This document shows, piece by piece, positions 32,788-64,000 of a DNA stretch of 64,000 bases; within the stretch, counting starts at the first letter, position 1, and every line of letters begins with the position of its first letter. The stretch covers positions 11,820,828-11,884,827 of the forward strand of contig OZ316894.1 of assembly GCA_973895155.1 (NCBI GenBank), given 5' to 3'. The position numbers and the translations under genes were made by a program. The notes under the pieces are model-generated. The model worked only from the letters and a program-made list of their open reading frames with translations, had not been told where the DNA came from and did no database searches. The DNA is from Marsupella aquatica (lineage: Eukaryota; Plantae; Marchantiophyta).

Positions 32788-32907
32788 CTATGTCTTATTG
32801 TGACCTTTCAAGCCAAACATTTCCAACAACCTGCAAAATGAGCTCACAGTGGAGCTCATGAATTGGCTTGAGAAATTAAAATATTGGTTTACAAATAATG
32901 GAGTTAT

Positions 32908-33014: not shown

Positions 33015-33023
33015 CTCCCCTTT
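33015..33023 (-). other. Polypurine tract
   Basis: Minus strand AAAGGGGAG directly abuts the 3' LTR. Confidence 0.85.
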
Positions 33024-33367
33024 GGATATATAGTGCAACTATATAGACAACATAGACTATACCTAAATTATATCATGTTCATAGGGGTACATGATATAAG
33101 TACAATCGAGGTAGACTGCCTCGTTAAAAAACCTTTATCAACTCTAGCTTAGTAAAAACTCTACCAGTGTAGCAGAGAAAAATATGAGTGCTAAAGGAAA
33201 AAGAGTGCAGCCTAACAGTCCTCGTCGTAATAAATGTCAATAGTAAATAAAGTTAGATGTTATAGTAAATCTAGCTTGAATATTTGTTTCATCAGTCGGT
33301 CGTCATCAGCATGTCGTCAGCATCATCAAGTGTCATGTGGAGTAGCAGCCTCCACGGTCATCATGCG

Positions 33368-36300
33368 TCACACGCTCCGTAGTCCAATCGCCTGGCAGTG
33401 TCGGTGGTGAACTGATGGCGATAGTGATTTGGTGAAGAGATCCGCACAGTTGTCTGCACTTGAAATCTGCAAAATGTTGATCTCTTTTCCATGTAACTCG
33501 TGGGTGTAGAAAAACTTTGGAGCTATATGCTTCACGCGATCGCCTTTGATGAATCCTTTCGTGATCTGCTGTATACATGCTGCGTTATCCTCAAAAATGT
33601 TAGTAGGCTTCGTTAGTGGTGGTAGGCCGCATTTGGTGTTGATGTGGTTTATAAAGGATCGTAACCAAACGGCTTCACGACTAGCCTCATGTAGAGCTAA
33701 GATTTCTGAGTGATTTGATGAGGTTGCTGTTAGGGTCTGTTTCACACTTTTCCAAGAAAAAGCGGTACCCCCTATAGTAAAAACGTATCCGGTTTGGGAT
33801 TTTGCGGTATCAGTGTCAGAAAGATATCCGGCATCCGCATATCCTATGAGCTCGTGGTTTGCACCGAATGGGTAAAATAACCCTGTATCGGTGGTGCCAC
33901 GCAGATATCTAAATACGTGCTTAACTCCGTTCCAGTGTTTGGCTGTGGGAGTTGCACTATGTCTGGCTAGTAAGTTAACTGCAAATGCAATGTCTGGTCT
34001 GGTCTGATTCGCTAGGTACATTAATGCTCCTATTGCAGAAAGATACGGAGTTTCTGGTCCTAATAGTGGTTCATGTTCTTCGCGTTTGCGAAAAACATCA
34101 GTATTGTTTTCTAATGAACGTACAACCATTGGTGACGTCAATGGGTGTGCTAGGTTCATATTGAATTGTTTTAGGATCTTTTCGGTTTGTGTGGTCTGAT
34201 GGAGCATCATGCCAGTGGGTAGTATTTCTAGTTGTAAACCTAAGCAAAAATTTGTATGTCCAAGGTCTTTCATCTCAAATGTGGATTTAAGACTGGTAAT
34301 TGTATCTTCTGTAAGTTGGGGTGTCCCAAATATATTTAAGTCATCAACATAGATAGAAACGATGACATATTCATCATCCACATGTTTAATAAATAAACAT
34401 GGTGTAATGGCATCATGGGAAAAACCCATGGCAATCATTTTATCAGTAAATCTTTGATACCATACTCTGCCACTTTGTTTCAGGCCATATAATGCCTTCA
34501 ACACACGGATAGCTAGTCCGCGGCGAGTATTCTGTACGGTTGACACAGCGGTGTCGTTGTTATGAGTTACATGTGTAGATGACACATTAGGTGTAACTTG
34601 AGATAATTGTGTGATAATCTTATGTAAATATGGGATGTGCGATTTAGCGCCTTGAGCTAAAGCTCGACGACGTTGCTCCAACTCAGGAGGTGATCGCATA
34701 TATAGACAGGTGTCTAATGTGCCATATAAATATGCAGTTGCAACATCTAATTGTCGCATTTGTAGTTGGTGGAAAATGGCAAATCCGATTAAATATCGGA
34801 ATGTTGTGCTATCCATAACCGGTGAGTAAGTTTCATCGTAATGAATTCCCGGTTGTTGGGTAAATCCTTTCCCTACCAGACGTGCTTTGTAGCGTACAAC
34901 TTGGCCTTTATCATTTCTTTTGCGGACAAATGTCCATTTGTAGCCAATTAGGTGTACGTCTTGTGGTGTTGGCTCGACTGGGCCAAAAGTGTGTCTGCTG
35001 AGTAGGGAATCTAATTCTCCATTTATAGCTTTTTGCCATTCAGGCCAATTTGGTCTGTTTTGGCATTCTAAGATAGATATTGGTTCAGGTGTATCGTCAG
35101 TGATATGTGTTGCCACCATTAATGCAAAAGCATCATCTATTGAAGTAGTATTTCTATTCCACATTGCACCTGTGTGTGCGTAGTGGATAGAGATCTCTTC
35201 ATGAGATGTAGGTTCGGTATGATCGACATCAGGTGAAGGTGGTATAGATGAACCACGCCTTCTTGGTTGTTTATCTTTTGATCCCAAAGGTCTGCCTCGT
35301 TTTGCACGAGGTTGGGATGTACTAGCTGGCTCACTTGATAATTCGATGCGAGTAGATGCTCTCGCAGCTGGAATATGTGAGCGGCTAACTTGGGATGTAT
35401 CGACGAAAGCGTCGGGAAGTTCTTCCACAATCTTGTGGAGTTGTAAAATTCTTTGAACTTCTTTCTCCCCTTGATTCGTTCTAAGGTCTTGCCAAAATGG
35501 CGAGTGTCTTTCCCACTCCAGAGGTGGTTGTGGGTGTTCAGGGGTTATTAATGGTGGATAAATGTGTTCATCAAAATGACAATCTAGAAATCTGGCTTTA
35601 AAAACATCGCCAGTTGTGGGCTCCATATATCGGATTATGGATGGTGAGTCGAATCCGATGTATATCCCCAACTGTCGTTGGGGTCCCATCTTGGTTCGTT
35701 TAGGTGGAGTAATGGGGACCATTACCTGACATCCAAATGAACGAAGATGTGATAGGTTAGGTTTAATACCGTTAGCTATTTGGTATGGGCTATAGGTATT
35801 AAAAGCTGATGGGCGATATTGGATTAATTCATTCGCCTGTAATATGGCGTGTCCCCATGCTGAGACGGGGAGTTTTGACTGCATTAGTAATGGGCGTGCA
35901 ATTAACTGAAGACGTTTAATTACCGCTTCAGCTAATCCATTCTGGAAATGCACATGAGGTACAAGATATTGTACGTCTATGCCAAGTGATGTGCAAAAGT
36001 CATCAAACGTTTCGGATGTGAATTCCCCTGCATTGTCTACCCTTAGTGTCTTAATGGGGTGATCTGGGAATTGTGCTTTCACGCGCAAGATTTGCGCCAA
36101 AATACGAGGTATAACCATGTTCCTCGTTGAAAGCAGTGTCACATTTGACCATTTGGTTGATGCGTCAATTAAAACCATAAAGTAGCGGAAAGGTCCGCTT
36201 GGTGGGTTAATTGGCCCGCAGACATCAGCATGGATTATTTCCAAGAATTGGGGTATTTTAGTTGGCAATTTTGATGTCATGGGCCTTGTTATTAACTTGC

Positions 36301-38002
36301 CGCGTGAGCATGCAGTGCATGGAGTGCTCACTGGGATGTGGCGTGTATTGATTGGAATGCCACTTGAATTCTTAATGATTTTTGTTAGCATTGATTGGCC
36401 GGGGTGGCCGAGGCGTGCATGCCATAGCGCATGCAATTCGCTTGTATTGGCGTTGTTATGCAGGCATTCAATTTGTGTTATGTAAAACCCGCAGGGATAC
36501 GAGAAAAGTGTCTCTTTAATTATTTTCCCCTTAAGGGTGTTTTCAACCAAGTGAATGACCTCTTGGTCTCTGGTATCGCCCGTTTGGACATGTAGCCCAT
36601 TTGCTCGTATATCTCTAAAGCTAAGGAGATTACGAGTTGCGTTTGGGGCGAAAATGGCAGATTCTATGTGTATTTCAGTACCATGCGGGAGTCTAATAGA
36701 GGCTGGGCCGAAGCCCTCTTCTATTTGACTAGGACCATTTATAGTGGTCAGGGATCTACGTGAGGGTGTAATCTTGTGGAAAAGGTGCCTATCCCTGAGG
36801 ATAGTGTGCGTGGTCGCACTGTCGATAATACATGTGCTTGGGCTATTTAAATCTGGTGTAGTGGAGCTACTTGCCACTAAGTGTGCCTCTGGTTGGGCGG
36901 GTAGGTCTGAAAAGTCTTGGAATGGGTCGCTAGATTCCATAAACGCCCCGTGGGTTTCACGGGGTGGTGGTCTTGAGGTTTGTCTATCCTGGATGGACCG
37001 TTGATATAAATCTCTGAGGTGTTGTGGGATTCTACAGTTTCGCGCGAAGTGGTTTGTCATGCCACATTCATGGCATTTCGGTCGTTCCCGTTGTTGTCGG
37101 GGTTGTGACCGATCATTCCTACGGTTGTTGTTGTATGGTCTACCACCACCGCGTCCGCCGCGTTCACCTCGTCCTCCACGTCCGCCGCGTCCATCGCGTC
37201 CTCCACGTCCTCCGCGTCCTCCACGTCCACTAAAGGACCGTCTGAAATTGTGTTGTGGGCGTTGGTTAAAGAAACTCCCCTTGTTGGGGTTGTTTCTATG
37301 GTTGCCATTCCTACTGCGCTTAATGCCCTGCCTTGATGTGGAGGGTTCAGCGGTGTCGGTAAGATGTGTTTCACTCTGTGATCCTGAGGGCAGTGTGCCC
37401 GCAGGACGTTTTCTGGAATTAACTAAAAGGAGTTCTTGGTTTCTCTCTGTGACTAGGAGGTGGGCTATGAGCTCGGAGTATTGCCCGAACTTTATGTTTC
37501 GATACTGTGTTGATAGCCACACATTCGATGAGTGAAATGTCGACAAGGTCTTCTCTAGCAGATCCTTGTCCGTGACCGGCTCGCCACATAGTGCGAGGGT
37601 TGAGGATATTCTAAAGAGTTCGCTATTGTAGGCTGAAATTGAGGTGAAGTCCTGGACCCGCAAGTTGAGCCAGTCTTGTCTGGCTCTAGGTAATTCGACC
37701 AGTTTCTGGTGGTCGAATCGGGTCTGTAGGGCTGTCCATAGTTCCCGAGGGGTCGAAAGGTGCATGTATTGTCTCTGGAGGAATCTATGGATGTGGCGTC
37801 TCAGGAATACTAGGGCTTTCGATTCGTTGGCTTTAGTTAATGGGTCTGGTTGGGGTTCGCCAGCTAGTATAGGTTGAGCCATCCCTATAGCTGGGAGTAG
37901 GGTTAGCAAGGTTAGGTTTTCTTTTAGGTTCATGGACCATTCTAGGTAGTTGCCGCCATCTATTTCTAGGGCGGGGAAGTTGAGTTTCTCAAGGTTGGTC
38001 AT
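33368..38002 (-). CDS. Copia Gag-Pol polyprotein (Gag, Zn knuckle, protease, integrase, RT, RNase H), 1544 aa, uninterrupted
   Basis: Zn knuckle CHECGMTNHFARNC; protease CIIDSATTHT; WHARLGHP; integrase IHADVCGP, RVDNAGEF, QNGLAE; Bianca-type KRTKMGPQRQLGIYIGFDSPSIIRYMEP; RT RYKARLV, ALYGLKQSGRVW, IYVDDL; RNase H GYADAGYLSD, FEDNAACI, ADLFTKSL. Confidence 0.97.
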   Translation of the reverse strand: MTNLEKLNFPALEIDGGNYLEWSMNLKENLTLLTLLPAIGMAQPILAGEPQPDPLTKANESKALVFLRRHIHRFLQRQYMHLSTPRELWTALQTRFDHQKLVELPRARQDWLNLRVQDFTSISAYNSELFRISSTLALCGEPVTDKDLLEKTLSTFHSSNVWLSTQYRNIKFGQYSELIAHLLVTERNQELLLVNSRKRPAGTLPSGSQSETHLTDTAEPSTSRQGIKRSRNGNHRNNPNKGSFFNQRPQHNFRRSFSGRGGRGGRGGRDGRGGRGGRGERGGRGGGRPYNNNRRNDRSQPRQQRERPKCHECGMTNHFARNCRIPQHLRDLYQRSIQDRQTSRPPPRETHGAFMESSDPFQDFSDLPAQPEAHLVASSSTTPDLNSPSTCIIDSATTHTILRDRHLFHKITPSRRSLTTINGPSQIEEGFGPASIRLPHGTEIHIESAIFAPNATRNLLSFRDIRANGLHVQTGDTRDQEVIHLVENTLKGKIIKETLFSYPCGFYITQIECLHNNANTSELHALWHARLGHPGQSMLTKIIKNSSGIPINTRHIPVSTPCTACSRGKLITRPMTSKLPTKIPQFLEIIHADVCGPINPPSGPFRYFMVLIDASTKWSNVTLLSTRNMVIPRILAQILRVKAQFPDHPIKTLRVDNAGEFTSETFDDFCTSLGIDVQYLVPHVHFQNGLAEAVIKRLQLIARPLLMQSKLPVSAWGHAILQANELIQYRPSAFNTYSPYQIANGIKPNLSHLRSFGCQVMVPITPPKRTKMGPQRQLGIYIGFDSPSIIRYMEPTTGDVFKARFLDCHFDEHIYPPLITPEHPQPPLEWERHSPFWQDLRTNQGEKEVQRILQLHKIVEELPDAFVDTSQVSRSHIPAARASTRIELSSEPASTSQPRAKRGRPLGSKDKQPRRRGSSIPPSPDVDHTEPTSHEEISIHYAHTGAMWNRNTTSIDDAFALMVATHITDDTPEPISILECQNRPNWPEWQKAINGELDSLLSRHTFGPVEPTPQDVHLIGYKWTFVRKRNDKGQVVRYKARLVGKGFTQQPGIHYDETYSPVMDSTTFRYLIGFAIFHQLQMRQLDVATAYLYGTLDTCLYMRSPPELEQRRRALAQGAKSHIPYLHKIITQLSQVTPNVSSTHVTHNNDTAVSTVQNTRRGLAIRVLKALYGLKQSGRVWYQRFTDKMIAMGFSHDAITPCLFIKHVDDEYVIVSIYVDDLNIFGTPQLTEDTITSLKSTFEMKDLGHTNFCLGLQLEILPTGMMLHQTTQTEKILKQFNMNLAHPLTSPMVVRSLENNTDVFRKREEHEPLLGPETPYLSAIGALMYLANQTRPDIAFAVNLLARHSATPTAKHWNGVKHVFRYLRGTTDTGLFYPFGANHELIGYADAGYLSDTDTAKSQTGYVFTIGGTAFSWKSVKQTLTATSSNHSEILALHEASREAVWLRSFINHINTKCGLPPLTKPTNIFEDNAACIQQITKGFIKGDRVKHIAPKFFYTHELHGKEINILQISSADNCADLFTKSLSPSVHHRHCQAIGLRSV

Positions 38003-39587
38003 CTCTAAGGTCCTGGCGTGCAGCGGTGGTGTGCGTGTTTATATATAATATATATAGTCAAAAGACAATGCACATTTGCCGCATGCAATGGTGGAGAAAG
38101 GGTTGAGGATATCAATCTAGGTCACTGGCGAGTAAAGCAGGAATGTTTGGGTTTTTGCAGAATTTAGGGTTTGCACTTATTAAGTTGGTTTTCTTTGTGA
38201 ATGTGTAACTGCAAGGTTTCCTTTGTATTATCTTTTTTCTGTGTTAAGCTGTGCAGTAATGAGGTTTTGCAGTTTGTGCAGTTATTGGTGGTAATTTACT
38301 CGTGACTTGGTTAAGTGCACTTTCTGCTTTGTAAATGAAGTCTCTTTGATGAACGTTGCAATTAAAGAGGGTTTTGCGGTTATGTGCGGTTATGGAGCGT
38401 GCACTTAGCGGATTTCGATCGGGCTCGACGTTTTGTCGATGAAATGTGGCGCAATTGTCCCCTCTTGGTGGCCCCCTTTTCACTTCTCTGGTTCATTTCC
38501 TCCTTCAATGTCGTTCTCGGGCACTCTTCTCTGGTGCGCCATCATTTTTCGAAATCTCTCAGGTCGTTTTGCCGCTACTGCTTGCGAGTGTCTGTATGGG
38601 CAACGTTCGGAATGGTTCGCTTCACGTAACCTCAGCAAAAACTTACGGCCTTACCATGCGTCCATGTTTGCTTCCGTTTTTGAAAGTTGCTGTGGCCTTA
38701 TGATTTCTCTTCCGGGCTGATCCACACGTTTTCACTTCCTGTGTCCTTACGAGTTTATTTTCTTCCTTCTCCTTTCCGCTTCGTCTCGGAGTGGCAGTCT
38801 CTTCGCCGTAGTCCTGTGAAAGTTTCTTAGCTTGCTTCTGTATGCTTCGATCCTTCCTTCGGTCGATCTCACCTAATCTCTATTTCTTGCCTTAATTTTT
38901 CGATCCTGTGCGCTGGCCAAGATCGATTGTCTGCTGCGCCTTTGCTTATCCGATTACACTCGCCTCTCTGCTTTTCTTGTGGATTTTGATCTTCCGCTGC
39001 TAGCGGCCCTCCGTTCGGGTGCCTCCTTAATTTTTCTGTCCCTTCTCTTGGTTCTCATCGATTCTCCTCGATGTCTCTATCCTCGATGCCTCGGTTCTTC
39101 AATCTTCGATCCTCCGATCCTCGGTATCATTTCGCTTTTTAGTCTGGTGTCCTTATCATTCTCTTTCTGCTTTGGCTTCATTGATCCTTGGTGGTTGGGG
39201 TAATCGGACCCGTGCTGCGTCTTCCTCTCTCGATTGCTGCCAGCGTTCGGTCCGACGTCTCTTTTGGCCCTCTCTATTCTCTTTCGAGAATTGAATATGC
39301 GTGACTTTGGGCCTGGCTCTGTGTTCTACCGATGCCCTTACGAATCTCCTTGCGTTCTCTCTCGCTCACTCATTCTCTCATCTCCTTCCTGCATACGGCC
39401 TTCTGCCTTGTGATGTCCTTATGAATTGACGATTTTTCCTAAGGGAAAAGAATGAGACCCATGGTCCATTGCTGTCGAAAGCTGCACGCTTCCTTCCGAT
39501 CTCTTATTTGTCTTACTCAATCATTACTCAATTCGCCATGGCTCTTCGAAAAAAAATCTTAGCCTCCTTGCTCAGCCTCGGTGAGTC

Positions 39588-43358: not shown

Positions 43359-44578
43359 GGCCTGCCTCTGCACGTTGTTTCAATTGAGTGAATAACGAAT
43401 CGCTGGTGTCTGGTCAGCGCGGGGGTCAGCGTGTTCATGAGCTCCAGCTCTCCAGACATTAGAGTGTCGTTCGTCCTGCTTCCCTCACAGCGCCTGCATT
43501 AACTCCCTTCTGGCCTAGCTTGCACCCACTCAGTCACTCACTATCCATCCTACTACAGTAGCTCCATCCGCCTCTTGATCGATCTCATCGAGCCAGCGAG
43601 CACGCAATGCGCTAGCTAGCTGGAGAGCGAGAGCGAGAGCTAGCTACGTCAACCTCGGAGACTACGGGAGACTACGACTGCGACCAGACTCCGAGTCAAG
43701 GCCGTTCAAACTGAAAGCAGGTAAAAAGGACCGAGATTGCATTCGAAAATGTGGATCGCGTATGGCGACGATCAGGAGCAATGCGAGAGTCACGAATTGC
43801 CCAGAGGTTTAGAGGTGCGCAGCGAGAGATTTCGGGGCCAGATCCAAGAGGAGGAGGATACTGTGAGCGTATTAGCAGCATCGGCTCCAAATGTCGCACT
43901 GTTCCGGCAGTCTGCGGGGAGGAGCAGCGGCGAGAGATATGGTACGCGGGAGCGCTCGTCCGGAAGAATGTTGTGCACAGCAAAGTCAACAACAACATTA
44001 ACAATACCGAGACAAAGACCAATCCGAGGGGGTGCAATACGACGTTCTTTGACTCGATCACCAAGCTTTTCGCGTCTAAAAGGCTTTCGCGGTTAAACTT
44101 ACTGTAGCATTCGACACTGGCGACAGAGTGCAGATTGCGGGACGTGCTGTTGTGTTGTAAGAAATTGGATTCGGACACTCTCATCGGTCTGAAGATTTGG
44201 GTGCACCTCTCACATAATCAGGCATGCACAGGCGCCGAACCCAATACTGCTGCGCCAACCGACTGACTGTAGCTAGCTAGCGTAATACTAGGAAACCAAG
44301 CTCCAATCAAATCTATCATGGTATTGTGTTGAAATTTGTTCAATTAAAGGACCATGAGACATTTTATTGAAGCTCCCCTAACCACGGACCCCAGAATTCG
44401 TAGTCTTGGCGGGAGTCTGCGTCCCCGGCAGATTAATTACCTGCACTCCCCAAATGTAGCTCCGTAGTGAACCAAACAATTGCAAACCCTTCGATCATAA
44501 TCTACGACGGGGCAGTGTTTACACTGAGCATATGCCTCTCTGATCAGTCAAGATCGGGGGCCCGAGCTTGGAGATAGA

Positions 44579-45919
44579 ATGTGCTATTCAAATGTGCTCC
44601 CTGGGCGCGGAGACAGCTTCCAGCAGAGCTATGACTTGAACTCGAAAAACGATTACAGACACATCAAGCACGAGGTAATGGACTGTCTGGTGACTACTCG
44701 ATCGTCCTATGAGATCACCACGGAGGGAGTGGAATTCGTCCTCAAGCAAAATAACTACGAGATGGACACGAGCCGCTTAGATCTTCTGTTCCGGACCAAG
44801 CAGTCGTCGATTGCCTCCGTGCGAGAGAAGCAGGTGTTCGTGATGGCACGTAGCAGCGCGGGGTATATCGTGGTGGCTTGTCGAGGGACGTTCTCGCTTT
44901 CGGATATCATTGCCGACGTCAAGCTGGCCAAGCTACCCGTGCCATTCGCCCAAGGGAGAGCTCAGATTGGGTTCGTGGAGCGAGCTATGGATATGCCTCT
45001 GGAGCTCTTTGTTTTGCTTCTCAGAGCACGTGAGAAGCTTATCTTCACAGGCCATTCCTTGGGAGGAGCTGTCACGGCTCTGACAGCCCTGAGGGTGCTC
45101 GAGGCCCTGGGGTCTGTGCCAGGACATTCCTTCATGCAAGAGCAAGTTCAGTGCATCACATTTGCCACAGCTCCGTTTGCGAATTTGGAGCTCGCAACAT
45201 ATGTGAACTCCAAGTACAAGAGTATATTCCATAACATCGTGTCCAAGCACGACGTGGTACCTCGGGCTCACAGTCTTGTCCCTCAATTCTTCTTCCCTGC
45301 GGCGAAGTGGGTGGTAGACAGGATGCACGCTAGGTGGGAGATACGGATGTGCAAGACTATGCTCGAGACCATGACTCAGATGTCCGTGGACAAGGCCGTG
45401 ACAAAGCTAGAGCAGAGGTTGCCATCGCTCTGGCCAGTGACATGGCTTTACAAATTCATTAAGGAATGCGCTGCGCATGATGAAGAGGCTCTCTTCTACA
45501 ACCATGTCGGCTATGTGCTCATGCTCGACCCTGACACCAAGGATCCGGAGTCCACTATAAGTATGGAGGATGACACCGAAAATTTGGGTTTGAACTTTTG
45601 CTTGGAAGACAAGAGCGTTTTGGAGATCTGCTACGAGCATGGATTGGGGAACTACTATTCGTGTCTTGTAAGAGGCTTGAGCGCCACCAAGGAAACCTCT
45701 GTAGCTTTTACCAGTCCATTTCAAAGACTAAATCCTGAGAATCTTCTCATGAATTATTACGCAGAGCTCATCAATGTCAAAGCCCGAGCAGCAGAAGCTA
45801 AGCGTATCTCTGTTAGAGACGGCCTTTCCACACAGCAGATTCTGAGGAATCCATCTCGGGCATGCCTCACTTATTTCAACCAATTTCTTATCAGAATTAC
45901 CGGCAACGACTTCCCGTGA
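44579..45919 (+). CDS. Class-3 lipase (alpha/beta hydrolase), 446 aa, uninterrupted ORF
   Basis: IVVACRGTFSLSDIIAD; nucleophile elbow IFTGHSLGGA; CITF; catalytic Asp in NIVSKHDVVP; candidate His in EHGLGNY. The start codon is uncertain and upstream exons are possible. Confidence 0.85.
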   Translation: MCYSNVLPGRGDSFQQSYDLNSKNDYRHIKHEVMDCLVTTRSSYEITTEGVEFVLKQNNYEMDTSRLDLLFRTKQSSIASVREKQVFVMARSSAGYIVVACRGTFSLSDIIADVKLAKLPVPFAQGRAQIGFVERAMDMPLELFVLLLRAREKLIFTGHSLGGAVTALTALRVLEALGSVPGHSFMQEQVQCITFATAPFANLELATYVNSKYKSIFHNIVSKHDVVPRAHSLVPQFFFPAAKWVVDRMHARWEIRMCKTMLETMTQMSVDKAVTKLEQRLPSLWPVTWLYKFIKECAAHDEEALFYNHVGYVLMLDPDTKDPESTISMEDDTENLGLNFCLEDKSVLEICYEHGLGNYYSCLVRGLSATKETSVAFTSPFQRLNPENLLMNYYAELINVKARAAEAKRISVRDGLSTQQILRNPSRACLTYFNQFLIRITGNDFP

Positions 45920-50489: not shown

Positions 50490-52450
50490 GACTGCAAAAT
50501 GAATGGGGACTGCCTGTCGGGAAATTTGGAGTGAGTGCAGAGTGATTCAGGGAGATCAACAAGTGCTTGCCTTGGTTGAGTTCAAAACTCACCATCTCTC
50601 GTCCCATAAAGAAACCACAAAAATTGAGCAGCACCAGTGGGAAGAAGACGGAAGGTGCATCATGGATTCGTTTGAGGTCTATTGCAAAGTTGAGATGGCA
50701 GATGACCAAGCAACGAAAGAAGAATCAGCTCAAGGAAGACTATTGTGTTTCAACTTTGGGGAAGAGTGAGCCATCTATCCCATCCAAATCAATCCTTGTT
50801 TGTCTGATTAAGGTGTTCGACATTCGAATCTAGGAGAAGAAGGGTTGGGGCTGCTTGGTAGACAAAAATTTCTTTGAGATGTTGGAGGAGCATGTGAGCT
50901 CTGCTCCTATCAACAATGTTGTCTATCACTAAGCCGAGCATGTGCAGCAGTTGCCTGTGGATCAAAAATTGCATGCTCTGCAAGTCGATTGTCAAGTATC
51001 ATAAGTACTTTTTCCAAAGAGAAATGTTGTTGCCCAGTCTGGCCAACCTTCAACAGGTGAAGAGAGTAGAGAAGTCGTTGTTGCAGACACCTCATGGGGT
51101 TTTTGAGGAAGAAGAGGGAAAGTTTGTTGTGGAAAGACTTGGGACCAAAAGAAATTGATTTTGACAATGCTTATCTAGACTATGTGAAGTGGAAGAAGGA
51201 GTAGAAGCATTTGTCAATTGCTATAGCTAGTAAAAATTGTGTGCAAGATTACAAAGTTGATGGCATGTCACAAGAAGAAGCATAGAACGTGGTACTACCA
51301 CATTCATTTTGCTTGCCTTTGCATTTTTGTGTATACTTCAAGCATAATGTTTACACTAGTTTTTATATTGCAGGCTGGAGTTCACAAAGTGTGGGTTGAT
51401 ACCTCAGATGAGGAGGGGTACGAGCCCACCCCTGACAAGTGGGGATTAGAGTATCATGAGTCCTCTGACAAAGAAGACGCAATGTTCAGAGGTATAGTTC
51501 CTCTTCCCCTTTTGCCAATCATTTTTTCTGAATCTGCAGAGTTTGAAAACATTGACCAGAATGTCTACCAAACTTCAGGTTCCTTTGAATGACAGAGCTC
51601 AAGCCAAAGAATCAGGGAAGAAAGGAAAGAAACCCAGGAAGCCAAAAGAACCCAAGAAGTAGCCTCCACAGACTGTTACGCCTCTTGTTGACACTCAGCA
51701 AGCCGATGAGGTAAAATTTGCACTTCCAATGTAAGTACCCTATTTGTATACCATGATATCAATGTATGCACGATGGTTTAGTGCTCTTAGCCCGAGTATT
51801 GCATTTTAGGTTCCTCCCAATAAAGGAGCAAAAGCCGACCAATCAAAGCGGAAAACAACAAAGAACCAAGAAATCTGCAGAGCCACATTTGCCCACGCCA
51901 AACGACAGCACCACCCTTCCTGCAGATTCTCAGCAAGCTGACCAGGTAACATTTAATGATCGAAGATCTTCTCAACATTTGTAAACATTGTGGGGAATGT
52001 TTTCTCTTTTATCAACACTACGAGTTCAAGAGTATGACATTATGTTGGGGTTGCATACCATGATTTTCATGTATACTTAATGTTTGAATGTGCTTGTACC
52101 CGAGTACTGCATTTTAGGTTCCTGAATCCAATGAAGGACCTAAACTCAACTAATCTAAGAGGAAATCAACAAGAACCAAGAAATTGGTACAACCAAAGAA
52201 GCCCGCGCCTGAGGTAACCATCTTTTCAGTAGGCCCGAGAGGAACATTCCACAGCAGACATAGTGATAAATGTATTCTATATGCAACAATACTTATTTGA
52301 TTTAAACATCCAATAACCTTTGCAATTACAGGTTCCAAAAGAAGGAGAGCAGGCAACGGCAACTGCAGAGACAGAAACAAGTCTTGTTAAACAAGTCCCC
52401 AACAGTTGCAGTTGGAGTCACATTGTCAACATGGTGTACCCAGCAACCGG
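50490..52450 (+). pseudogene. Decayed multi-exon gene of unknown function with a Lys/Pro/Glu-rich 3' part
   Basis: One frame reads WGLPVGKFGVSAE*FREINKCLPWLSS...VFDIRI*EKKGWGCLVDKNFFEMLEEHVSSAPINNVVYH*AEHVQQLP, broken by isolated stops. Later GT-AG exons at ~51374-51710, ~51810-51944 and ~52118-52213, with a duplicated intron-exon unit. Confidence 0.5.
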
Positions 52451-53059
52451 GTGAATTGTAAGTGTAATTTGTCACACCATTCTGAGTAGTGTAGTAGTAT
52501 ATCGTGCTATTAGAGTATGTACATTTGGTATGAGTGCTATTGGAGCCGATAAGGTTCCATCAGGTTTGTGTGAGAGGGTACTTCTCACTTGTGAGGCATT
52601 GAAAGGTCATCTTTCAATGTTGAGCCTTGGAGAGAGAGGAGCTTGAGTGTGGCTATGGTGGCTGTGAGCTCCGCTTGTGTAACGTGGATTCCTTGAGTAG
52701 TGCAAGGTGTGTTGGCTTGACATACGTGTGTGATCGGATCGGTGCGGGATCGATGGGGTATTGTTGACCGGGATCGTTGTGCCGATTGTATGGAGATTAT
52801 TGTGGGTTTTGGACATGTGTGGACATTAGTTCCACTTGTATTCTATTCTCTTGTGTTTGTGATGTGGCAGTGTGACTATGTTTGGATGTATGTGACAAGC
52901 GATGTATGTTGTGTAGCGATATGTATGCGCACGACAAATTTCTGATCCCTATATATAAGTTACTTCCAGTGCAATAAAACTATCTAAGCAAACTGCCATT
53001 AGTTATTAGTAGGCATCAAATATTTACTAATGGTATTATTGTTTTTTTGCTAGTAACAG

Positions 53060-53432
53060 ATGTCTACCCCACGAAATATGAAGATTGGCAGGACCCAAAT
53101 TCTATATTAGATTTGGTTGTGGTGGTACATGGAGTTATTGGTGAAGCAACGCGAGGAACCCGAACCCATAAGGAGTTGCTAGAATCAGGCATTATATTGT
53201 ATGATGCTTCTTATGTACCACCTTTGGGAAAAGGAAAGTTTGGGAAACTCATACCAATACCACTTCCTTCATTTGATGACCCATCATGGCCAATTCCCGA
53301 CATGAGTACTACTGAGTCCTTTCGTGCTAGACTCTTTTCTGACTTCCATATGGCAATGAAACCCAGCACATGTGGTCGTGTTTGTAGAATTAACTGGTTC
53401 ATGCCATTCCACATCATGATAGATCTATTTCA
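53060..53432 (+). pseudogene. Protein-like exon of unknown function, apparently truncated at its 3' end
   Basis: Acceptor-like aacag|ATGTC, then DVYPTKYEDWQDPNSILDLVVVVHGVIGEATRGTRTH...PIPLPSFDDPSWPIPDM...CRINWFMPFHIMIDLF. Composition suggests a globular domain. No family recognised. Confidence 0.5.
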
Positions 53433-56162
53433 TGTCCAAGTGGACATTGGAATGCGACAAACCATGAAAATCTTGGGATATTTTCAACATCATTTTCACA
53501 ATTACCAAAAACAACAAATCTATACTTAATTACAAACATAAAATTTACGGTCTTTGATCTGAGTTTGTGCAAACTCAAAATCTTAAGTAGAATGCCACTA
53601 TCCATTGTAGGTGTGCATCTAAGTCCACTAAATCTCTAACTACAATGCAACTCAACTAATCTAAGGCTTCTCTAACCTCCTCTCCACTTCTAGAAGATCC
53701 CCTTCCTATCCCCTTCCAATCCCCTTCCAATCCTTATCAATCCCATTCCAATCTCCCTTGCTCCCTCTCCCATCCTCCACTCGCTCCCCCTTCAATCCTT
53801 AGGTCTGCTCGATTGAGATCTAGCTCTCAAGCTCAATTTTTCACAAATTATCCCTGATCCTTTGTGGCTATCTCCCCTAATTGGAATCTGTCTCATTTAA
53901 TCAGAGTCTACCACAGCTAATTCAAGCAGCAGTCAATCACAGTAGAAGCTCATTCAATAACCAAATCTGAGAAATCAAAGTCCAACACTCAGGTGAAATC
54001 CAGCAATCAAAGCATCAACATCAAACCAGGAATTCAAAATTTCAGCTTCAGGATTTTGAAGGCGACAGCAGAGATTAGCAGTCGTTCCCAGACCATAAAT
54101 TAGGCCTGACCTCAATCAGCAGCTGATGACAGCACCTTGATGCGACTTGAGCTTAAGTGAGGGCCAATAGCCCTCTCCAGGCCGCAGCCTCCTTTGCCAT
54201 AGCCAATTGGCTACCCTCGCCCTTTGTAGGTCATTGAGCTTGCAACACAGTCTTTGCCCTTTGTATTTTGTCACAACCAGTTTTGGACTTCATGAATTCA
54301 TGAAGCTTTTGGTTTCTCAGTTTCCCAGGTGGTAGCCCCTTCATGAATTCATGAAAGAGAATAAGGTATCTTAGGGAGAGAATCTCCAGAATAGCCAAAA
54401 GAAAGACTTCAAAAGTGAAAGAAAAGGGGATAAAGACAAACCACTCAATCTCAAGAAATGCAAAAAAATGGTGAAATAAAAGCAAAAAGTGCTCCAAATG
54501 CCAATATTCCAAAAAGCATATGGAAACAGTAGGTCAACAAGACAAACTCTCCAATCATGAGTCATGGAAGTACATATCTTGGTGGGCAAAAACATATGGG
54601 TTTTTACTGGTGGGCAAAAACATATGGGTTTTTAATGCCAATGTTTATCCTCATGAAACGTGGGAATGCAAACCTAAAAATGATTTATTTCTCCAAGTAA
54701 ACTGGATTGCGTAGTCCAAACAATATTGTGAGATTAATAATTGAGCAATCTAGTAAAGGGAGGTATGGGGAAGGGAAAAGGCCCAAAGAAGCCCTAAGTT
54801 GCCCAACAAGCCAAAAAGTCGAAGGACTAAGATACCACCTAGTAGCCAAGAAGACTAATTAATAAAGTGTTGTGTCATAAAAAACTTTTGGAAATATAAT
54901 TTTTTCAACTTTTTCCTTGACTTGTTCATCTATGTCATGAAAGGATTGGCTTAATTATTGAAAAATGATTTAAGCATTTCTTATTCATTTAAATTAGAGA
55001 AAGGACCAATTAAGTACAAATAAGCGTCCTCTATTCATGAAAACATGTTATTTCATTTGTTTCAAGTTAAAGGATTTTTGCTCTTTTGTGTGTTTTGTCT
55101 ACATTAAGTTCTTCTCACTCATTTGAGAGCACTAGCCTCCCCGGGCGTTAAGTTCTATCCCATGTGGTTGAGACTAGTGTTAATTTGGGTGTCCGACTCA
55201 AGGGTCTTCAAGATAGTGGACAGTTGAGAAAGCGGACTCATGAATTCATGAAGACAGATTGTAACAAGTTTCTAAAAACACTAAGTCCTGTCTCAAAACC
55301 AGATTTTTGTGCATTTTGGAAAGGTCAAGCGTTGCAACAAGCACCAAGGGGAGAGAGTGAATATGGTCGTCTGACATCTCTCAAATTCCAGGAAGGTGTA
55401 AGAGCACTGACACAAGCGGGGACACAAGAAGACCTACTGAGGCTGCAAATAATTCCAGCAAGGAAAGGATCATCACAAGAAGGTCACCCGGGCACACTTG
55501 CATCATTTGGCTGAGATTGGAAGCCAATCAATATCAAGAAATTAACTTGAAGGGGAAGAATAAGAATTTGGAAGAGGTCCCCAAGAAGAGGTTGGGGGAG
55601 CCCAGTTGGGTCAATATGTTTGTGAAATTCAGATGTTGCCTAACAAATCAAACTCAGGCACGTTGAGAGCCAGGTTGAGAGTAAAAGAGGAGCCATTGAG
55701 TGATTTGATTTGGATCAAAATGGGTACATCTGGAAGCGTAGGTGCTGAATTTGTGGAGATATCATCTTCCATTGAAAAGTCTCCCTCAAGGAGTGAAGGG
55801 GCGCATGTTGGAGAGTCAAAAAGAGATCATAATTTATGAATTTGAATTTTTCCCAAGTCTAATGAATTATGGAGGTAATTTGATTGTTTGTTAAAAATAC
55901 AAATCATGTTTTGGTAAAAATTGCTAAAATGGCATAGTAAAATTATAGGTAGTAATTTTATCAAAAGTAAGTTGAGATCATTTTGTAATTAGGAGATGGT
56001 GAAAAAAGTGTCATTTTAATACTTTCAGTTTGTTTTATAATTTTGTCAAAAAACAGGTAGTATTTTTGGCCACTTTTTTGCCATTTTCTTTGTTTCTGCA
56101 ATTTTTTTACGAGAGTGCTTAGATTTTGGGCTTGTTACTCACCCTTTAAGGCTTCTTGTTCA
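53433..56162. mobile_element. ~2.7-kb non-coding block with TG...CA ends, possible solo or chimeric LTR
   Basis: Starts TGTCCAAG and ends CTTGTTCA (6/8 inverted match). The flanking coding sequences on both sides stop making sense at these points. No matching 5-bp TSD for these ends. Confidence 0.35.
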
Positions 56163-58484
56163 TGTAGTGGGTGATGTGGTGTTCACCAAAGGCTTCAATA
56201 TAAAGTCTACCCCAATTCTCAAATTTTCCTTTGAATGCCAACCTTTGTGAATCAGTCAAAGTCAGCCCAGTCAGGTAAGGTTGCAACTCCTCATAAGCTC
56301 TCCACATGCGCATTCGAGAAAGCTTTCCTTCTGGCCCGTTATGATGATCAGCTGTACATAAGTCCATCCAAAAAATTTCGTTTTGGGAATATGTACTCTT
56401 TTGGAATAATCTTGTGACATGAGCTCCATTCATGCTTGGTCTATTGGGGACACTACCAGTTGCTCCAGAAAGGTTTGGATCCTTGAATATTCTCACATTA
56501 CCTCCATGAACCCCAGCTGAGGACAAAGATTCTTCCATTTTCTCTATAGCTTTTGCTTGAGAAGGTTTGTTTTGCATGTTCCAAACATACATGAAATGCA
56601 GATGCAAAAATGTTTCCACAATTCGAACATTAGCATGCAAGGTGCAAATATGTACACGCTCCAATGGTATTGGGAGTATTGGGTCAAAATGTGTGTCTCC
56701 TGATGTTCCATGACTTGGTTCTGCTGGAAAAGATGTGGAGAACAATCCACCCTTCCATGAAGGTTGTTGACGTTCCTTACCGGCTCTTCTTGCAGCCATA
56801 TCACTCCCTAGTGCTTTTTTGCTTGACTTTTCTTGGAGACAATAGATGCAAGAGTGTTTAGCATTTGCACCATGTTGCAACCCATACATGCATTTTATTG
56901 TTTTCATATCTGCTGTCAAATGCCACTCCACTTTGTATTCTCCCATTCCTGGAACCTGTAATAATTTCCCTGCTTCCTGTGCTTGAATCACACTTGGAAA
57001 TGATGTTGTTCAAAATATGAATTTCAATTGCGCATGTGACTCCTTTGCCACCTCAAAGCATGCCACTGGCCAAATGTCACGATCTGATTGCACTGATCGA
57101 GAAGTATCGAGGGTCATCTTTCTGGATTGTCATATCCAAAGCCCTGTTCATAAGAGTAATTGAGACCCTTTCTAACTTTTGGTCTTTGACAATCTGTGCC
57201 TCATCCAATTTGAGGACAAATACTAGGGGACTTTCACCAATCTCCTCTTCAGTGACATTGTAAAAGCGAACCATGTTTTGTTGTACCACTTCAAGTTCAA
57301 CAAATAGTGAATTCTTGTCACTCAACATAATTCTCTTGGGCTTTGTTCCATCAGTGGTTTTGGACTTCTTTGCCTTTGGGGCATCTGGAAGCTCCATATG
57401 CAAGCTTTTGTACTCACCAATGAAGTGAACAAGGTTTGCATTATATTCAACCCGCAACTTAGACACTTGAGAGGAATTAGGAATAGCAGCAAGTTTCAAC
57501 CGTGGATGCACAAACTTGAAGCCATTTTTCAAAGTTTTACGGATAGCAGAAAAACCTTTCTGAGAAACACCAGTTTTATCACACACTGCCAACATACTAG
57601 TTGGCTGGATATGATCTCCAACTTCAGTCAAGATACTGTTTGTGGCCTCCACAATTGTTGTGGTCATGCTAGGTTGTTGCACCATGTACTCCTTCTCCTC
57701 TTTTGTCAACATCATTCTTTGCAAGTAACATAGCATTCTGTCTTTGTGCTTCAACATCTCCACAAACACAATGTTTCCCCCCACATATTGCATTATCCAT
57801 TTGAACCTCCTTTGAAGTCTTTGCTTGTAGTAGAGTTCGGACTTGACGTCTTAATCTTTTTGCATGCCCACCTGTTTGACTCAGATCTGACAAGTCTTTT
57901 CTTTTGCGAACATGCCCTTCTCGCAACAATTTATCATATTTTGTTCTCAAAGAAACAAGCTCTTTCTCTTTGTTTTGCAATGATGTTGTACATGCCAAAA
58001 CTGATTGCTGTAGGCTTGCTATTTGATCATGGTCAGATTGCAATGACTGTATTTTTTGTAGCAACTGAAGGTTCTCCACCCTCAGCTCAAGACTCACTTG
58101 CATAAAAAAAGCCCTGCCACTTTCTATGTTTTTGATGTTTGCCTCGTATTGCTTAGTAATAGTCATATTTGTTTTTGATAGGCTATGGGCATATCTATAG
58201 AATCCATTTTCTCCTTCACAAATATAAACTACAAGCTCCTTCCCCTCCTTCAAGGTTGTAAAGGGTGGTGGTGCATTTGTTCTTGGATCTTTAGGGTATA
58301 TAGCCCCATTTATCCACAGGTCTATGTTAGTAGCCCCCTCAACCCTTTTTTGGGGGAAATCAAATTTCTGTGTTTGCAAGTCAACATTGACCCCTCTTTT
58401 GATGAGGGGCGCATATTTTGGATCCACTGCAAACCGTATCTCATACGACTTGCCCCATTTGTTTGTAATGTCTTGCAAGGCCAT
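56146..58484 (-). pseudogene. RAG1/Transib-like DDE transposase, frameshifted and C-terminally truncated
   Basis: Joining ORFs 58484-57669, 57793-57077 and 56991-56146 (frameshifts at ~57720-57780 and ~57097, stop at 57010-57012) gives, in RAG1 order: RKRKDLSDLSQTGGHAKRLRR; IQPTSMLAVCDKTGVSQKGFSAIRKTLK; FVLKLDEAQ; SVQSDRDIWPVACFEVAKESHAQL; LTADMKTIKCMYGLQHGANAKHSCIYC; ICTLHANVRI; FGEHHITHYM. Confidence 0.8.
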
Positions 58485-59571
58485 GACTCTGCATTTTAAG
58501 AGATGGTCATAATGGGAAAAAAATCAATCTCATTTATTGATACAACTTAGAGTTCACGCTTTATGCTTAGAGCCTTTATTTAATTTACTAATTTGAAAGG
58601 AATTCTATCCAACGTTGCTAAAACCACATATCCCCGTGGCACAGCCTACTTACATATATGTACTAATGAGGGACATATATTCCTAGTTACACACTTTACT
58701 TCCATTTACTAATCAGGGCACTCACTGATTGAATGGACTCCACTTGTGAAAATAACACTTGAATTCCTTGGCACTCCTCTTGTATGTTCGCCATCACCGT
58801 CTGTCACCAACCCATATTGTCTCTCAATCCACGTACTTGGAGACGCATACATATCAGGTATAAACATCCAAGTCAAGAATGTGTATCTAAAGTATATAAC
58901 TATTGTTTCCAGAAACAAATAGCAGAATTGATTCCTTCAGCGTTACCGCCCTCATTCTCAATGAGGTTTGTGTCCATCATGATTGCTCGCTGTTACCCGA
59001 TTGTTCTTCTTCTTCTCACCTTTGGGTTTACCAAGATTGGCCTCAAAGCTGAATCTTAGCCATAAGGTTCAAACCTGAATTCTTAGACATAATTTTAAGC
59101 TGAAATCTTAGCAATAAGAAGCACACAACGTACAAGATAGCTTTCCGTTAGCGTCTCTCACAGGGAGCTCTCGTTGGATGTCCTCGTCAAAAGGAGTTTT
59201 GCTATGAATTTTGTATGTACATATATAGAGTACAAGAGTTTTGGTTTGAATCCGCATACCAAGGAGTTCTTCTCATGGAAAAGCTCGAGAAATCCTAGTC
59301 CTTGCTTGTAGTAAGGAGGTTGAGAATTGCACAGAGGGAAGAGTCGATATAAAGAGTGACATTGTGCACAAAGAGTTTGCTTGGCCTGTGACAGATGAGG
59401 TATTCTATTGTGCGAGCAAACAGGAGTTTTGCTAGCGAGGACAGCAGGCTAGCGAGGCAAGTTTGCGCGTAATTTGAGGGTAGTTAAGGCGCATTCCCAA
59501 GTAAGATTGTCAATATATACTGTGAAACAGTTAAGGAAAACGAAAATGCAGATACTTAAATATTCACAAAC

Positions 59572-62500
59572 TCAAAAATCGAGATCTTCACTACACTGAA
59601 TTGAATGAAAAGGCATCATCACTGTCAACAAAACCAGGTCAAAAAACCTTTCACAATCCATCTTTAATAAAACTTTGGTATGACAAATATCTTCTGGAAT
59701 GAGATTGCATCTGAAATTGACCATGAGTCCTTGAGAATCCTCTGATTCCAAATCATCTGAGGAATTACTAGGATCGCTACTGGACTCCCTATCAGTCTCC
59801 TCAGCCGAACCGTCAACATACTGTGCTACAGTCCCAGCCTCATCATCTATGAACTGAGGGCAGTAAAGGGCTTTCCGAACACCCCTCACTGACCGCAGAC
59901 CTTTCCCCTCCCAAGTCAAAACGACGGGCGCTTCATCAACCTCCTTTGCAGTCTTTTCAGCATAGCATGGAAGCGCAAATCCCTTGTCAGGGGTCACAAG
60001 AAAATGATCCTCGATTTCTTTCCGAAGACGGAATCTCTCCTCCGAAAACCAATCCGAACGCCTATCACTGAAGAAATCACCAGAATCGGATCAATACTAA
60101 ACATCCGAAAATTCTACAAACAAAAGAAAAACACCAAATAGGGAGTTCTACATCAAAGGCCAAGTGCTTTACTCCAGGTCGAATTCATCCTTCTCGTCTG
60201 AAGGTCCTCCTTGATCATCTCCTGGGATGGTGAACTCATCATCAGACCCTTCATCTTTGGGATCATCGTTCTTCGGGTCTGCGGCCCCTTTCAACTTCTG
60301 GGCATGTCTATCCAACACATTTGCCAAAGTTCTTTGTGCACACAGATGAAGAATGTCTTGATCTTCAACACCCACAACAAATCTCCCAGCGTATTCCCCA
60401 GCGGCAAAAGCACTTCCATCTCCAACAGTCCAGTCAATGACAATGTCCTTTGGCAAAGTAAGGATCTCCATTACGGCTTGCATGAACCCAACTGACAATC
60501 TATTGGAACCTGCGAAAGCCGCCCTGGGACTGGGATCAGTTTTTGGGTAGCAAACACTCAACATCGATTTATGGCGGGCATCCTCCGAGGAAGTCATTGG
60601 AACATATCCTGTATGTTTCGGGACTTTTGCCGAGAATTCCACCTTGCAGAAGACATCCATAATGAGAGTAACCACCTGAATTGAAAACGATAATACGTAA
60701 GAAATGGGAACTTTTGGTTAGCGAGCTCGCTAGCAAAAATTGCACAAAAAATATGGAGGATATCTTACCTCGATGTCCATATCTGCCTGATACAAAGGAG
60801 ATGAAAGCAAAACCGAATACTGCCGGACATGTTTAAATTTGTTCTTCTGTTCGACTGCAGAAAAAATTTGCCTCATATGGTTATAGTCAGAGCTGTGAAG
60901 AACTGCGACATAACCATCGTCGGCAAGCATCGGACGCATGACTCCAAAGAAATAATATGGTAATTTCTCACTCCAAACATTCCACTTCGGGACCTCCCGG
61001 TCTGTGACGCTTGTTCGATGACCCGTGGGAAGGAATATGAAACCCAAGTGAGCACCAATTCCAGCGTAATTTTTTCCGTTGATCATCACGGCGTTTGGGT
61101 GTTCGCTCGATTTGCTCATTCCAGACAACCACTGATCCGCATCGCCCATCCAGGGAGGTCTTACTTTCCTCTGGCTAATTGAGTTTGCAGTTTCCGTGAG
61201 ATTGCTCTTTGCCAAGAAATGCCTCTCACCATCCTTCTTAAGACCACACATTCGTGCTACTCCTTGCGCGACGCATGCTTCCTCCTCATCCGAGTCGGAG
61301 AGAATTTGGACATTGCGCTTCCTCTTTAAACGCTTGATTGAACCCAGGTCCACAGCAGATTTTGTTGTGACCTCAACATCAGGAGACTTGGGTTCTTCTC
61401 CATCATCCGCCCCACTCTTCAAACTGCCAGAGGCTGCAGCCTTTCTCTTCTCTGAAAAACATGTTAATGTCAGACAGGTGACTGAGACAAAATTACTCCG
61501 AATGAGGTATGAAAAAAAGAGGAGAAAAAGACTTACTTTGCTTCCCAGACAAGACTGATCCATCTTTGGACGTGTCCTTCACCGGCACTTTCCGAGGTCT
61601 CCTCGATCTACTCCGGTCCACAATGGTAGCTACACCAAGAACAGCTTTCTCCATTGCATCACATCCGCCAGCCTCGGCTTCTGCAGGAGCTAATTTGGAC
61701 TCTGTAATGTACGACTCTGGTATCAAGCCTCGATTTATCATATGAAATGCTGCCTTCTCTGCTGTGTCAAATGTCATTGCCCATTTGTCTGATTCTAAAT
61801 ACCATGGACAGTGAAGGACTTCCCACTCACTCATCTTCCTTGGAGCCTCCACTCCCTCACATGGGTACATCGAGTACTCTCCATATTTAACAAAGGTTGG
61901 ATCCTCTTTCACTCCTGCTATCCAAGGCGAGAAGCAAGCAGGATAGGACCACCAATATGTTTTGTCAGCAACTTCTCTATCCACAAAAAAATGATACGTA
62001 TATCTCTTCGCCCTCCTCCAAAAAAGTGAGATGTCAATCTTCTCACCCAACTTTGGTGGCCAAATCTGTTTGAAAAAACGAGATTTCACTCTCGTTTGGA
62101 AATCTTCAAAGTCCTCCTCTATGTCAAGGATCAGCGATGGCTTTGTCTTCTCAGACGAAGTAAGGATCCTTGCATCTGGAACAGTTGGGATCAACTCTGA
62201 AATAATCTCAGACATGAGCGAAGAACAAATTGACTCAACCTGCTCCCAAACAGCCCATCAGTGAAGCCAAAGTTTTGTTTCGCTGTCCGAGAATTGACCA
62301 GGGTGGAAGTACTTCTTGCGAAGCTCAGGTCTGCATTGTGCCTCGAGGAGTACACATCTGAGCTGGGGAGTCAACGATGAGACACCCGTAAATAGCCTCG
62401 CACGATCGAGACCACATGACACATTACCCCTTCCTTTATCGTCTGTTCGTTGGGCCTCCTTCCTCTCATGTTCGCAGTAGTTGTGCATCTCAACACACTT

Positions 62501-63693
62501 CTGGAAAAAGTCACCAAACTCAGGATTTAGGAGAGGTCCAATCTTTGGCACCTTCACATTCCAATCTGCCAGTTGCTCCTTCATCATGTCTTTGACTGCC
62601 ATGTCTTGCGCAGCTTTTGAAAGAGGTTCTCCTTGCGCTTCTTTCAACTGAAACTTCTTCTTCAAATCTTCCGTCTGCGCTGCAATATTAGCAGTAGACA
62701 GAATGTACGTGCAGGCATCGAGTGTCATGTTCTTCGAATACCAAGCCGGTTTCCTGATATTTGCCATCTTCTGCTGGAAAAGTTTGTAGTTGTCTGCATC
62801 GATGATATCTTTGTATACAGAAAGGTCATTACTGAGAACCTTGTGGACTCTCTCTGCTTCAAGGACCCAAGAATTCTCAACGTGACATTGAGTCAACCTG
62901 AGCAAAAGAAACAGGTCAGCGAGATCGCTAACAAGAGGAAATGAAAGAATTTTATATACAATTCACAGCTTGAAGGAAAAGAAACAAACCTATTCAGTGC
63001 ATGCATTGCCGACTCAATCTGCACGAATGAGTTCTTGTCACCCTTGAAAATTCGACAAACAACTCGAGGATGATATTTGACATCATGGGGATTCTCGTCC
63101 GCAAGCTGCATCCATGAGTACAGACGATGATTTCCATCGAAAACACAGAACATTTTGTCTTTCAAAATTTTGAAAGCTTCGTGAGAATCACATTCCCTCT
63201 CGAATTCTTCATTCTGAAGAATCCACATGTCATCCCACGACTCCCGAATCACATCCTCGCACATCTGGACAAGGCCATCTTCGCCGGTCATTTGGACATA
63301 AAATCGAGGCGCATCTTCGATGTATCCCTGCGTCCGGAATTCATTCTTGAGTGTCTCGATCGCAGTCGAGTTAGTTTGTAAGGACCGAACGATCTGCATG
63401 TTTCGCATTCTACAAAGGGGAATCCTCGGAGGAGCGAGCGGGAATCCAAATTTGTCATTTCCAAAAGGGAAAAGATGGCGATTGATGACAACAGAATAGG
63501 GTTCTGAAGCTCCAAGTTGAAACGTAGGATTCACAACATCTACTTGGTTCACCATCTTGGGCCTCCTCGGTGTTTTCAATCCCGCCTGGAGCGCCTTCTT
63601 GTTCACTGTAGACCTGGTCTCCCTTCGGCTTGACTCGACTGACTTGAACGATCCTATTGATGACAAGCTCTCGGGTGAAGACAATGGCTCCAT
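59572..63693 (-). pseudogene. Spliced gene for a ParB/Srx-like domain fused to a beta-class N4C/N6A DNA methyltransferase-like domain, with one premature stop
   Basis: Exons 63693-62990, 62897-61537, 61451-60769 and 60675-60169 (or 60675-60173 plus 60067-59572) join in frame through GT-AG introns of 92, 85, 93 and 105 nt. In-frame TGA at 62258-62260. ParB-like IPLCRM...IETLKNEFRTQGY...CVFDGNHRLYSW. MTase-like MRPMLADDGYVAVLH and ILTLPKDIVIDWTVGDGSAFAAGEYAGRFVVGVE. Confidence 0.78.
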
Positions 63694-64000
63694 CAGGGGG
63701 TCCGTGAAGTGATAAGGGTATCAACAGGTCAAGGTCGAGGGCAACACGCTTTGCGAACATAAAAACACCCGAGAATCGATCTTCCAATCAAAGACATAAT
63801 CGTACCCTCGTCTGTTGCTTTCACCTGAATGCTGCGCCCGGTCGTGAAAAGAGATACAAATATTCTGTACGACTCTTCTCGCAATCATTTTTCAGACAAC
63901 GTCAGGTATACATGTACTTCCGGAAATACGAACCACCGAACTCACGACTGAAAGAAAAGTATCTAATGACAATGAGATAGGTGTCCAGTACTATACCGTA

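Follow-up and report, generated by a model that had tools for sequence, protein, structure and literature searches.

In a 64,000-nucleotide stretch of the genome of the plant Marsupella aquatica (contig OZ316894.1, positions 11,820,828 to 11,884,827; hereafter the window), we found a damaged gene on the minus strand at 56161-58484. We consider it probable that the gene, here in a broken copy, codes for a DDE transposase with a predicted RAG1 fold and likely stems from a low-copy cut-and-paste element, and that its lineage, which has no name and contains introns, sits on the RAG1/Transib/Chapaev side of the CMCT clan. RAG1 itself, which cuts antibody genes, arose from a family of jumping genes. 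A first-pass annotation of the same letters had read the gene as a transposase collinear with the RAG1 core, and this interpretation is supported by our analysis.

A gene in three frames, cut at its exon end

Exon 1, of about 774 codons, is spread over three reading frames. P0233, a relative of 789 residues, is collinear with the window from 58445 down to 56161 across all three (combined E 2e-103). This is far beyond chance, and the frames are thus parts of one gene. All the peptides quoted by the first-pass annotation are present on the minus strand, in the order it gave, and their codons could be mapped. RKRKDL starts at 57908, IQPTSML at 57610, and CIYC at 56850; the first Asp codon lies at 57205-57203, the Glu of KESH at 57042-57040, the second Asp at 56910-56908, and the His of CTLH at 56637-56635, while HITHYM ends at 56161.

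The first piece of the exon (57716..58484, minus strand) encodes a conserved N-terminal region that probably forms a coiled coil, with an NBD-like run of basic residues from 57908, and is 27% identical to residues 14-242 of P0233. The basic stretch is common to the window protein, P0233, and P0221, and its correspondence with the NBD of RAG1 is a resemblance between sequences. The second piece (57098..57712, minus strand) matches the DDBD and pre-RNase H parts of RAG1, carries the first predicted catalytic Asp, and shows 40% identity to P0004. The third (56161..57093, minus strand) holds the KESH Glu, the second predicted catalytic Asp, the CxxC, the His, a helical zinc-domain region, and the THYM end, with identities of 51% to P0004 and 80% to P0006.

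The frames are broken by two 4-bp insertions, placed approximately at 57712..57715 and 57094..57097. The former is missing from X2 and X4 contigs and present in an X1 contig; the latter is missing from the X4 allele contig, one X2 contig, and the contigs of a paralogue. The X1 contig agrees with the window letter for letter over 56404-59129, including the insertion near 57712, but X1 may be the source sample of the window and is then not independent. An in-frame TGA stop was read in the window sequence at 57010..57012 (minus strand). This corrects the first-pass annotation: the frameshifts are two in number (near 57712 and 57095), and an in-frame stop (57012-57010) comes in addition. With two insertions, one stop, and a truncation at the exon end, the window copy looks dead.

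The last codon of exon 1 is the Met at 56161..56163 (minus strand). The earlier boundary at 56146 was too far: the coding exon ends at 56161, and the last 15 bases (NKKP and a stop) belong to the adjoining repeat. The X4 contigs, from organism B, diverge from the window at 56161, where their gene-strand letters are GTAAGT, a splice donor. One of them spans 56161-59129 with 30 substitutions, 19 gap letters, and neither 4-bp insertion. Among the 73 fetched proteins reaching the THY[MI] motif, a set that includes members of a near-identical cluster, the next residue is Val in 70 and His in 3; a Val is the residue expected when a prokaryotic gene caller reads through a GT intron. One family locus shows an additional GT-AG intron, as read from sequence. 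The intron and exon 2, which would encode the HxxxxH, the catalytic Glu, and the C-terminal domain, are not in the window: the intron letters and exon 2 were not found elsewhere within the 64 kb, and a tblastn of the whole window with the C-termini of six homologs gave a best E of 0.35. The first-pass annotation was therefore right that the H937/H942/E962 region is missing in this copy, and the C-terminal HxxxxH and Glu that it expected were recovered in relatives, where intron-less proteins supply them.

The 3' part of the gene is replaced by a multi-copy repeat at 53463..56162, delimited by contig depth and by the ends of other copies near 53464 and 56161-56164. This repeat, about 2.7 kb long, directly adjoins the last exon codon, and its summed contig depth, a rough guide only, is about 8-10x that of the gene. 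Its ends read as TG...CA, the palindrome TCATGAATTCATGA is present three times, and another copy carries 528 extra letters near 53700. It has no terminal inverted repeat (TIR), its flanks form no duplication, and it gave no coding match. It is possibly a solo long terminal repeat. None among the contigs listed bridges the junction of gene and repeat; an X1 contig identical to the window begins at 56162, as would be expected for a repeat boundary.

Relation to RAG1 and place within the CMCT clan

The structural evidence comes from models of relatives. The P0004 model (549 residues, predicted local distance difference test score 68) retrieved RAG1 with Foldseek at E 1.9e-9, followed by BbRAGL (7.6e-9), HzTransib (1.2e-5), and Hermes (1.2e-2). 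Compared by VIA with 48,161 chains, it placed RAG1 at the top (Z 13.6, root-mean-square deviation (rmsd) 6.1, 395 residues aligned), above BbRAG1L (Z 12.0), HzTransib (Z 10.7, rmsd 6.5, 329 aligned), and a tail with the P element (Z 6.5) and Hermes (Z 5.7). Residues 60-549 of the model superpose on residues 459-949 of RAG1. The P0098 model is mostly helical, which makes its match modest: BbRAG1L came first (Z 11.4, rmsd 3.6, 159 aligned), RAG1 (9.7) and HzTransib (9.5) were tied, and the next had 7.2. A RAG1-like core fold, one of the marks of Transib, was thus found on the models of both P0004 and P0098, and the relatives of the window gene are predicted to fold like RAG1. A viral structure library gave 0 matches at E<=0.001.

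At the level of sequence, PDB searches with P0098 and P0142, two relatives that lack the last intron, gave 15 matches each, all of them to RAG1 chains (best E 0.0024 for P0098 and 0.0041 for P0142) and none to HzTransib; their alignments are gap-free over H937, H942, and E962 (full-length mouse RAG1 numbering). The Pfam RAG1 profile matched P0098 (E 0.004) and P0142 (E 0.003), both below the cut-off of that profile. Of the RAG1 motifs under discussion, the H937-E962 stretch has been checked residue by residue in relatives, and the others are supported by the structural match and by spacing. The median spacings in the family are 97 residues from Asp to Asp, 20 from Asp to Cys, 66 from Cys to His, and 161 from His to His, for comparison with 108, 19, 65, and 142 in RAG1. 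From the second Asp to the Glu there are about 275 residues (250 codons to the exon end plus 25 in relatives), versus 253 in RAG1. The predicted sites are kept in a 51-row alignment: the first Asp in 38 of the 41 rows with a residue, the KESH Glu in 41/41, the second Asp in 37/41, the Cys pair in 37/40 and 35/39, and the His in 40/41.

We then considered the CMCT clan as a whole. In all CMCT lineages, a CxxC and an H(3-4)H are described as lying between the second Asp and the Glu of the D-D-E (PMC12730594). The same arrangement was found at the family level, the window copy itself being without HxxxxH and Glu. DUF1280 corresponds to Chapaev and DUF1258 to Mirage, and DUF1280 groups with RAG1 (PMC3985635), while Transib, TransibSU, Chapaev, and Chapaev3 have been treated as one superfamily (PMC4411706). 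In Atlas, a language-model feature search that includes CMC clusters and was our one source of this kind (query P0233, residues 240-760), RAG1 clusters came first (0.97, 200 of 256 features). A cluster from arthropods, 38% of whose members carry RAG1_RNase_H, scored 0.92, Transposase_21/DUF1258 clusters 0.88-0.89, and Plavaka 0.86, these last sharing 118-143 features. The best structural, profile, and language-model matches are hence to RAG1, RAG1L, and HzTransib, and not to another superfamily as the first-pass annotation had allowed. Its caveat on CMC/Chapaev transposases held in part: CACTA and Mirage are clearly lower, whereas Chapaev (DUF1280) and unnamed cnidarian clusters almost reach the closeness of RAG1.

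Several results speak against our reading. Identity to RAG1 is 12-17%, four family profiles retrieved no RAG1 chain at E<=10, and the sole RAG1 sequence signal sits in exon 2, which the window copy lacks; neither the window pieces nor the family profiles had a significant match in Pfam or in PDB sequence searches. The window protein's own match is to DUF1258 (Mirage), weak (E 0.004) and around the second Asp. In Atlas, whose scores lack calibration for parts of proteins, unnamed cnidarian clusters (0.96) and DUF1280 (0.94, 177 of 256 features) come near the score of RAG1. No CACTA, Mirage, or Chapaev transposase appeared among the solved-structure matches, and we know of no solved structure of any of them, so the structural rankings cannot exclude these groups. 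Finally, ESTA, a separate CMCT lineage, has RAG1 as an HHpred match (PMC12730594); with CxxC and H(3-4)H in every CMCT lineage, the fold alone cannot separate them. As regards mobility, CMCT elements are marked by CA..TG termini and target site duplications of 2-5 bp; no convincing TIR pair was found around the gene, where inverted repeats are short and imperfect, nor any target site duplication, and one paralogue only was seen, so that mobility is inferred.

The family could accordingly derive from Chapaev with loss of the Chapa domain, or stand apart within the CMCT clan, as ESTA and Plavaka do, without special closeness to RAG1 or Transib. The Atlas scores of the DUF1280 and cnidarian clusters, the weak DUF1258 match (seen in 2 of 50 members at E 0.004, below its cut-off), and the ligands common to all CMCT lineages (PMC12730594) are in line with this. 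We nonetheless hold it to be quite unlikely. RAG1 clusters rank first in Atlas with the most shared features, the exon-2 Pfam match is to RAG1 only, and DUF1280 gave no profile match among the 50 + 14 members scanned. Moreover, the Chapa/NZD zinc finger, a trait of RAG1L and Chapaev, was not found in the family's N-termini (domain pattern from the supplement of PMC4411706): there is no CxxC in P0001, nor in the first 260 residues of P0233 and P0221. The family very likely belongs on the RAG1/Transib/Chapaev side of the clan, and it is not canonical insect Transib, from which its motifs and spacing set it apart.

A family of relatives, mobile or domesticated

At E<=0.001 the family counts 562 representatives; 150 of these were listed, and nothing beyond 'hypothetical protein' was annotated among the matches listed. 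One family search accepted 2 out of 1323 candidates and another 47 out of 496, with identities of 34-80%. A word-based search with distant alignment accepted 3 of 7992 without useful addition, and a metagenome scan accepted one of 32 stretches, a partial 2-kb locus. Pattern scans, which are insensitive, found a relative in 0 of 6 stretches of prokaryote genomes and 0 of 3 viral contigs. In a tree of 52 proteins, covering family members only, the window protein groups with P0006 (98/98) inside a large clade, beyond which lie clades that are more distant. This is apparently an undescribed lineage, unnamed and intron-containing, with the window copy in a plant.

In previous work, plant genomes seem free of recognisable Transib (PMC1131882), 39 plant Transib-like proteins were counted, with six listed species that are all angiosperms (PMC9435367), and 1007 plant genomes were screened with domain profiles (PMC12973397) that would probably miss this family. 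The accessible parts of 10.64898/2026.08.26.747230, 10.64898/2026.01.24.700457, and 10.1101/2021.09.26.461848 hold no plant lineage of this kind. Our literature search, whose coverage stopped short of Repbase and paywalled journals, found no paper on the family; Repbase may hold it under an EnSpm or Transib name. Pfam gives the family sub-threshold matches only, and domain-based annotation of transposable elements would miss it. The family remains a member of a known clan and the window copy appears dead; what it adds is a wider host range for the RAG1/Transib/Chapaev branch and an outgroup for dating the gain of the long zinc-domain insert, the Chapa domain, and RAG2.

By analogy with RAG1, BbRAGL, and HzTransib, intact members would dimerise and bind the element ends through their N-terminal NBD-like and DDBD regions, and catalysis would be by a D-D-E within an RNase H fold into which a C2H2 zinc domain is inserted. 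They may then nick the DNA, leave hairpins on the flanks, excise the element, and reinsert it with a short duplication, following the nick-and-hairpin mechanism of RAG, BbRAGL, and HzTransib (PMC10462144). Transib is marked by RSS-like TIRs of the CACAATG type and a 5-bp target site duplication. The motif CACAATG occurs once upstream, at 59366-59360, without a partner end, and 11 times in the window versus 13.0 expected, i.e., at chance level.

An alternative is domestication: the gene would be a host gene that descends from such a transposase, as RAG1 does in vertebrates, and that was recently pseudogenised in this lineage. Within the stretch, contig depth is lowest over the gene, and the one paralogue seen stands at about 82% identity. 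Counted over the best-supported rows only, 18 of the 21 listed differences from this paralogue lie at third codon positions (p 1e-6), a bias that reflects selection for the protein and that counts for the main reading as well. The intron that follows THY[MI] is widely conserved, and the X4 allele, diverged by 1%, has neither 4-bp insertion. In addition, a distant, intron-less subclade (P0134, P0139, and P0143) keeps D, D, and E and the TLH-type His but has lost CxxC and HxxxxH, i.e., most zinc ligands; these are apparently predicted RAG1-fold enzymes without a zinc site. Yet purifying selection and conserved introns occur in transposon lineages too, as the introns of CACTA illustrate. The window copy bears four lesions and sits among repeats, many of the fetched relatives are fragments or damaged, and the near-identical members of cluster 2 (P0025, P0203, P0205, P0207, P0209, P0211, P0214) sit on at least seven long contigs, of 133-657 kb. 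Taken together, the damage, the many broken relatives, and the near-identical members favour a low-copy transposon, and domestication strikes us as unlikely, although low copy number and conserved introns count in its favour.

A bolder version of the transposase reading would see here a native plant lineage of the RAG1 clan, branching off nearer to RAG1L than insect Transib does, without RAG2 and Chapa, persisting at low copy number with conserved introns, and intact (perhaps domesticated) in sister individuals. We regard this as possible, while leaning against it; if true, it would offer a living model of the pre-RAG2 ancestor outside animals.

Genomic surroundings and comparison with known systems

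The window has plant-like gene content. An SNF2 gene with several exons, presumably resembling SPLAYED, runs on the plus strand from about 2900 to 31000, with very long, Ser/Pro-rich, repeat-rich exons of 2087 and 1644 codons. A copia polyprotein, uninterrupted by stops over 1556 codons, lies on the minus strand at 33371-38038, and a class 3 lipase on the plus strand at 44528-45916. These neighbours bear on the idea that the gene is an animal or fungal Transib brought in by contamination or very recent transfer. Such cases may exist, since a 'plant' Transib in the supplement of PMC9435367 is of the canonical type and lies on a 2.8-kb contig. Here, a copia element, a lipase, and an SNF2 gene of plant type lie in the same 64 kb as the gene, at similar GC content, and the gene is present in four runs from two organisms; its motifs are unlike those of canonical Transib, and the family is diverse and has spliceosomal introns. 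We thus consider a foreign origin extremely unlikely.

Two other repeats were observed in the window. A very high-copy short repeat at 52272-53339 reaches a summed depth of 24,000-34,000 in X1 and overlaps a 183-codon open reading frame (ORF) without a Pfam match. A high-copy repeat at 59200-64000 (minus strand) has about 100-200x the depth of the gene in X1 and contains broken ORFs: one at 60172-60717 weakly matches N6_N4_Mtase (E 0.11), and one at 62896-63720 includes a VFDGNHR stretch that we take to be ParB-like. This repeat could be a mobile element with a DNA methyltransferase-like gene.

We finally compared the family with the known systems of the clan. CACTA/EnSpm, Mirage, Plavaka, and ESTA have, like the family, a D-D-E with the CxxC and H(3-4)H motifs, and the weak DUF1258 match lies around the second Asp. 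In contrast, Atlas gives CACTA/EnSpm, Mirage, and Plavaka only 0.86-0.89, there is no Transposase_21 match, and no second, TnpA-like gene was seen. Chapaev and Chapaev3 (DUF1280), which have been placed with Transib and RAG1 (PMC4411706 and PMC3985635), show the same clan motifs and reach 0.94 in Atlas; the family differs from them in lacking the N-terminal Chapa zinc finger and any DUF1280 profile match.

With Transib (subgroups I and II in PMC9435367), here represented by HzTransib and one canonical copy, the family shares a single transposase gene, the same predicted fold (Z 10.7), the absence of a Chapa domain, and an NBD-like basic stretch. The distances are different: 206-214 residues from the second Asp to the Glu (PMC1131882) versus about 275 in the family, and 31 from Cys to His by our count in the canonical plant copy of the PMC9435367 supplement versus 66-68. 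The first Asp lies within LKLDE in the family and within GFDG in the canonical type.

RAG1 and RAG1L (BbRAG1L and AanRAG1L, of RAGL/ProtoRAG) differ in that the family has no Chapa/NZD or RING region and carries an N-terminal domain and a likely coiled coil instead. It also has Ser in 39 of 41 rows at the column aligned by eye with R848/M848, and its intron precedes the equivalent of H937. No RAG2-like gene was seen: there was no Pfam match in 10 flanking ORFs, the ORFs at 46-53 kb were read by eye, and the 3' flank is replaced. Nevertheless, RAG1 and RAG1L are the best fold match, from the DDBD through the zinc domain. The HxxxxH-(19)-E stretch aligns without gaps in relatives, the median Cys-His distance is 66 versus 65 (taking C730 and H795 as the RAG1 residues), and both have a long distance from Asp to Glu.

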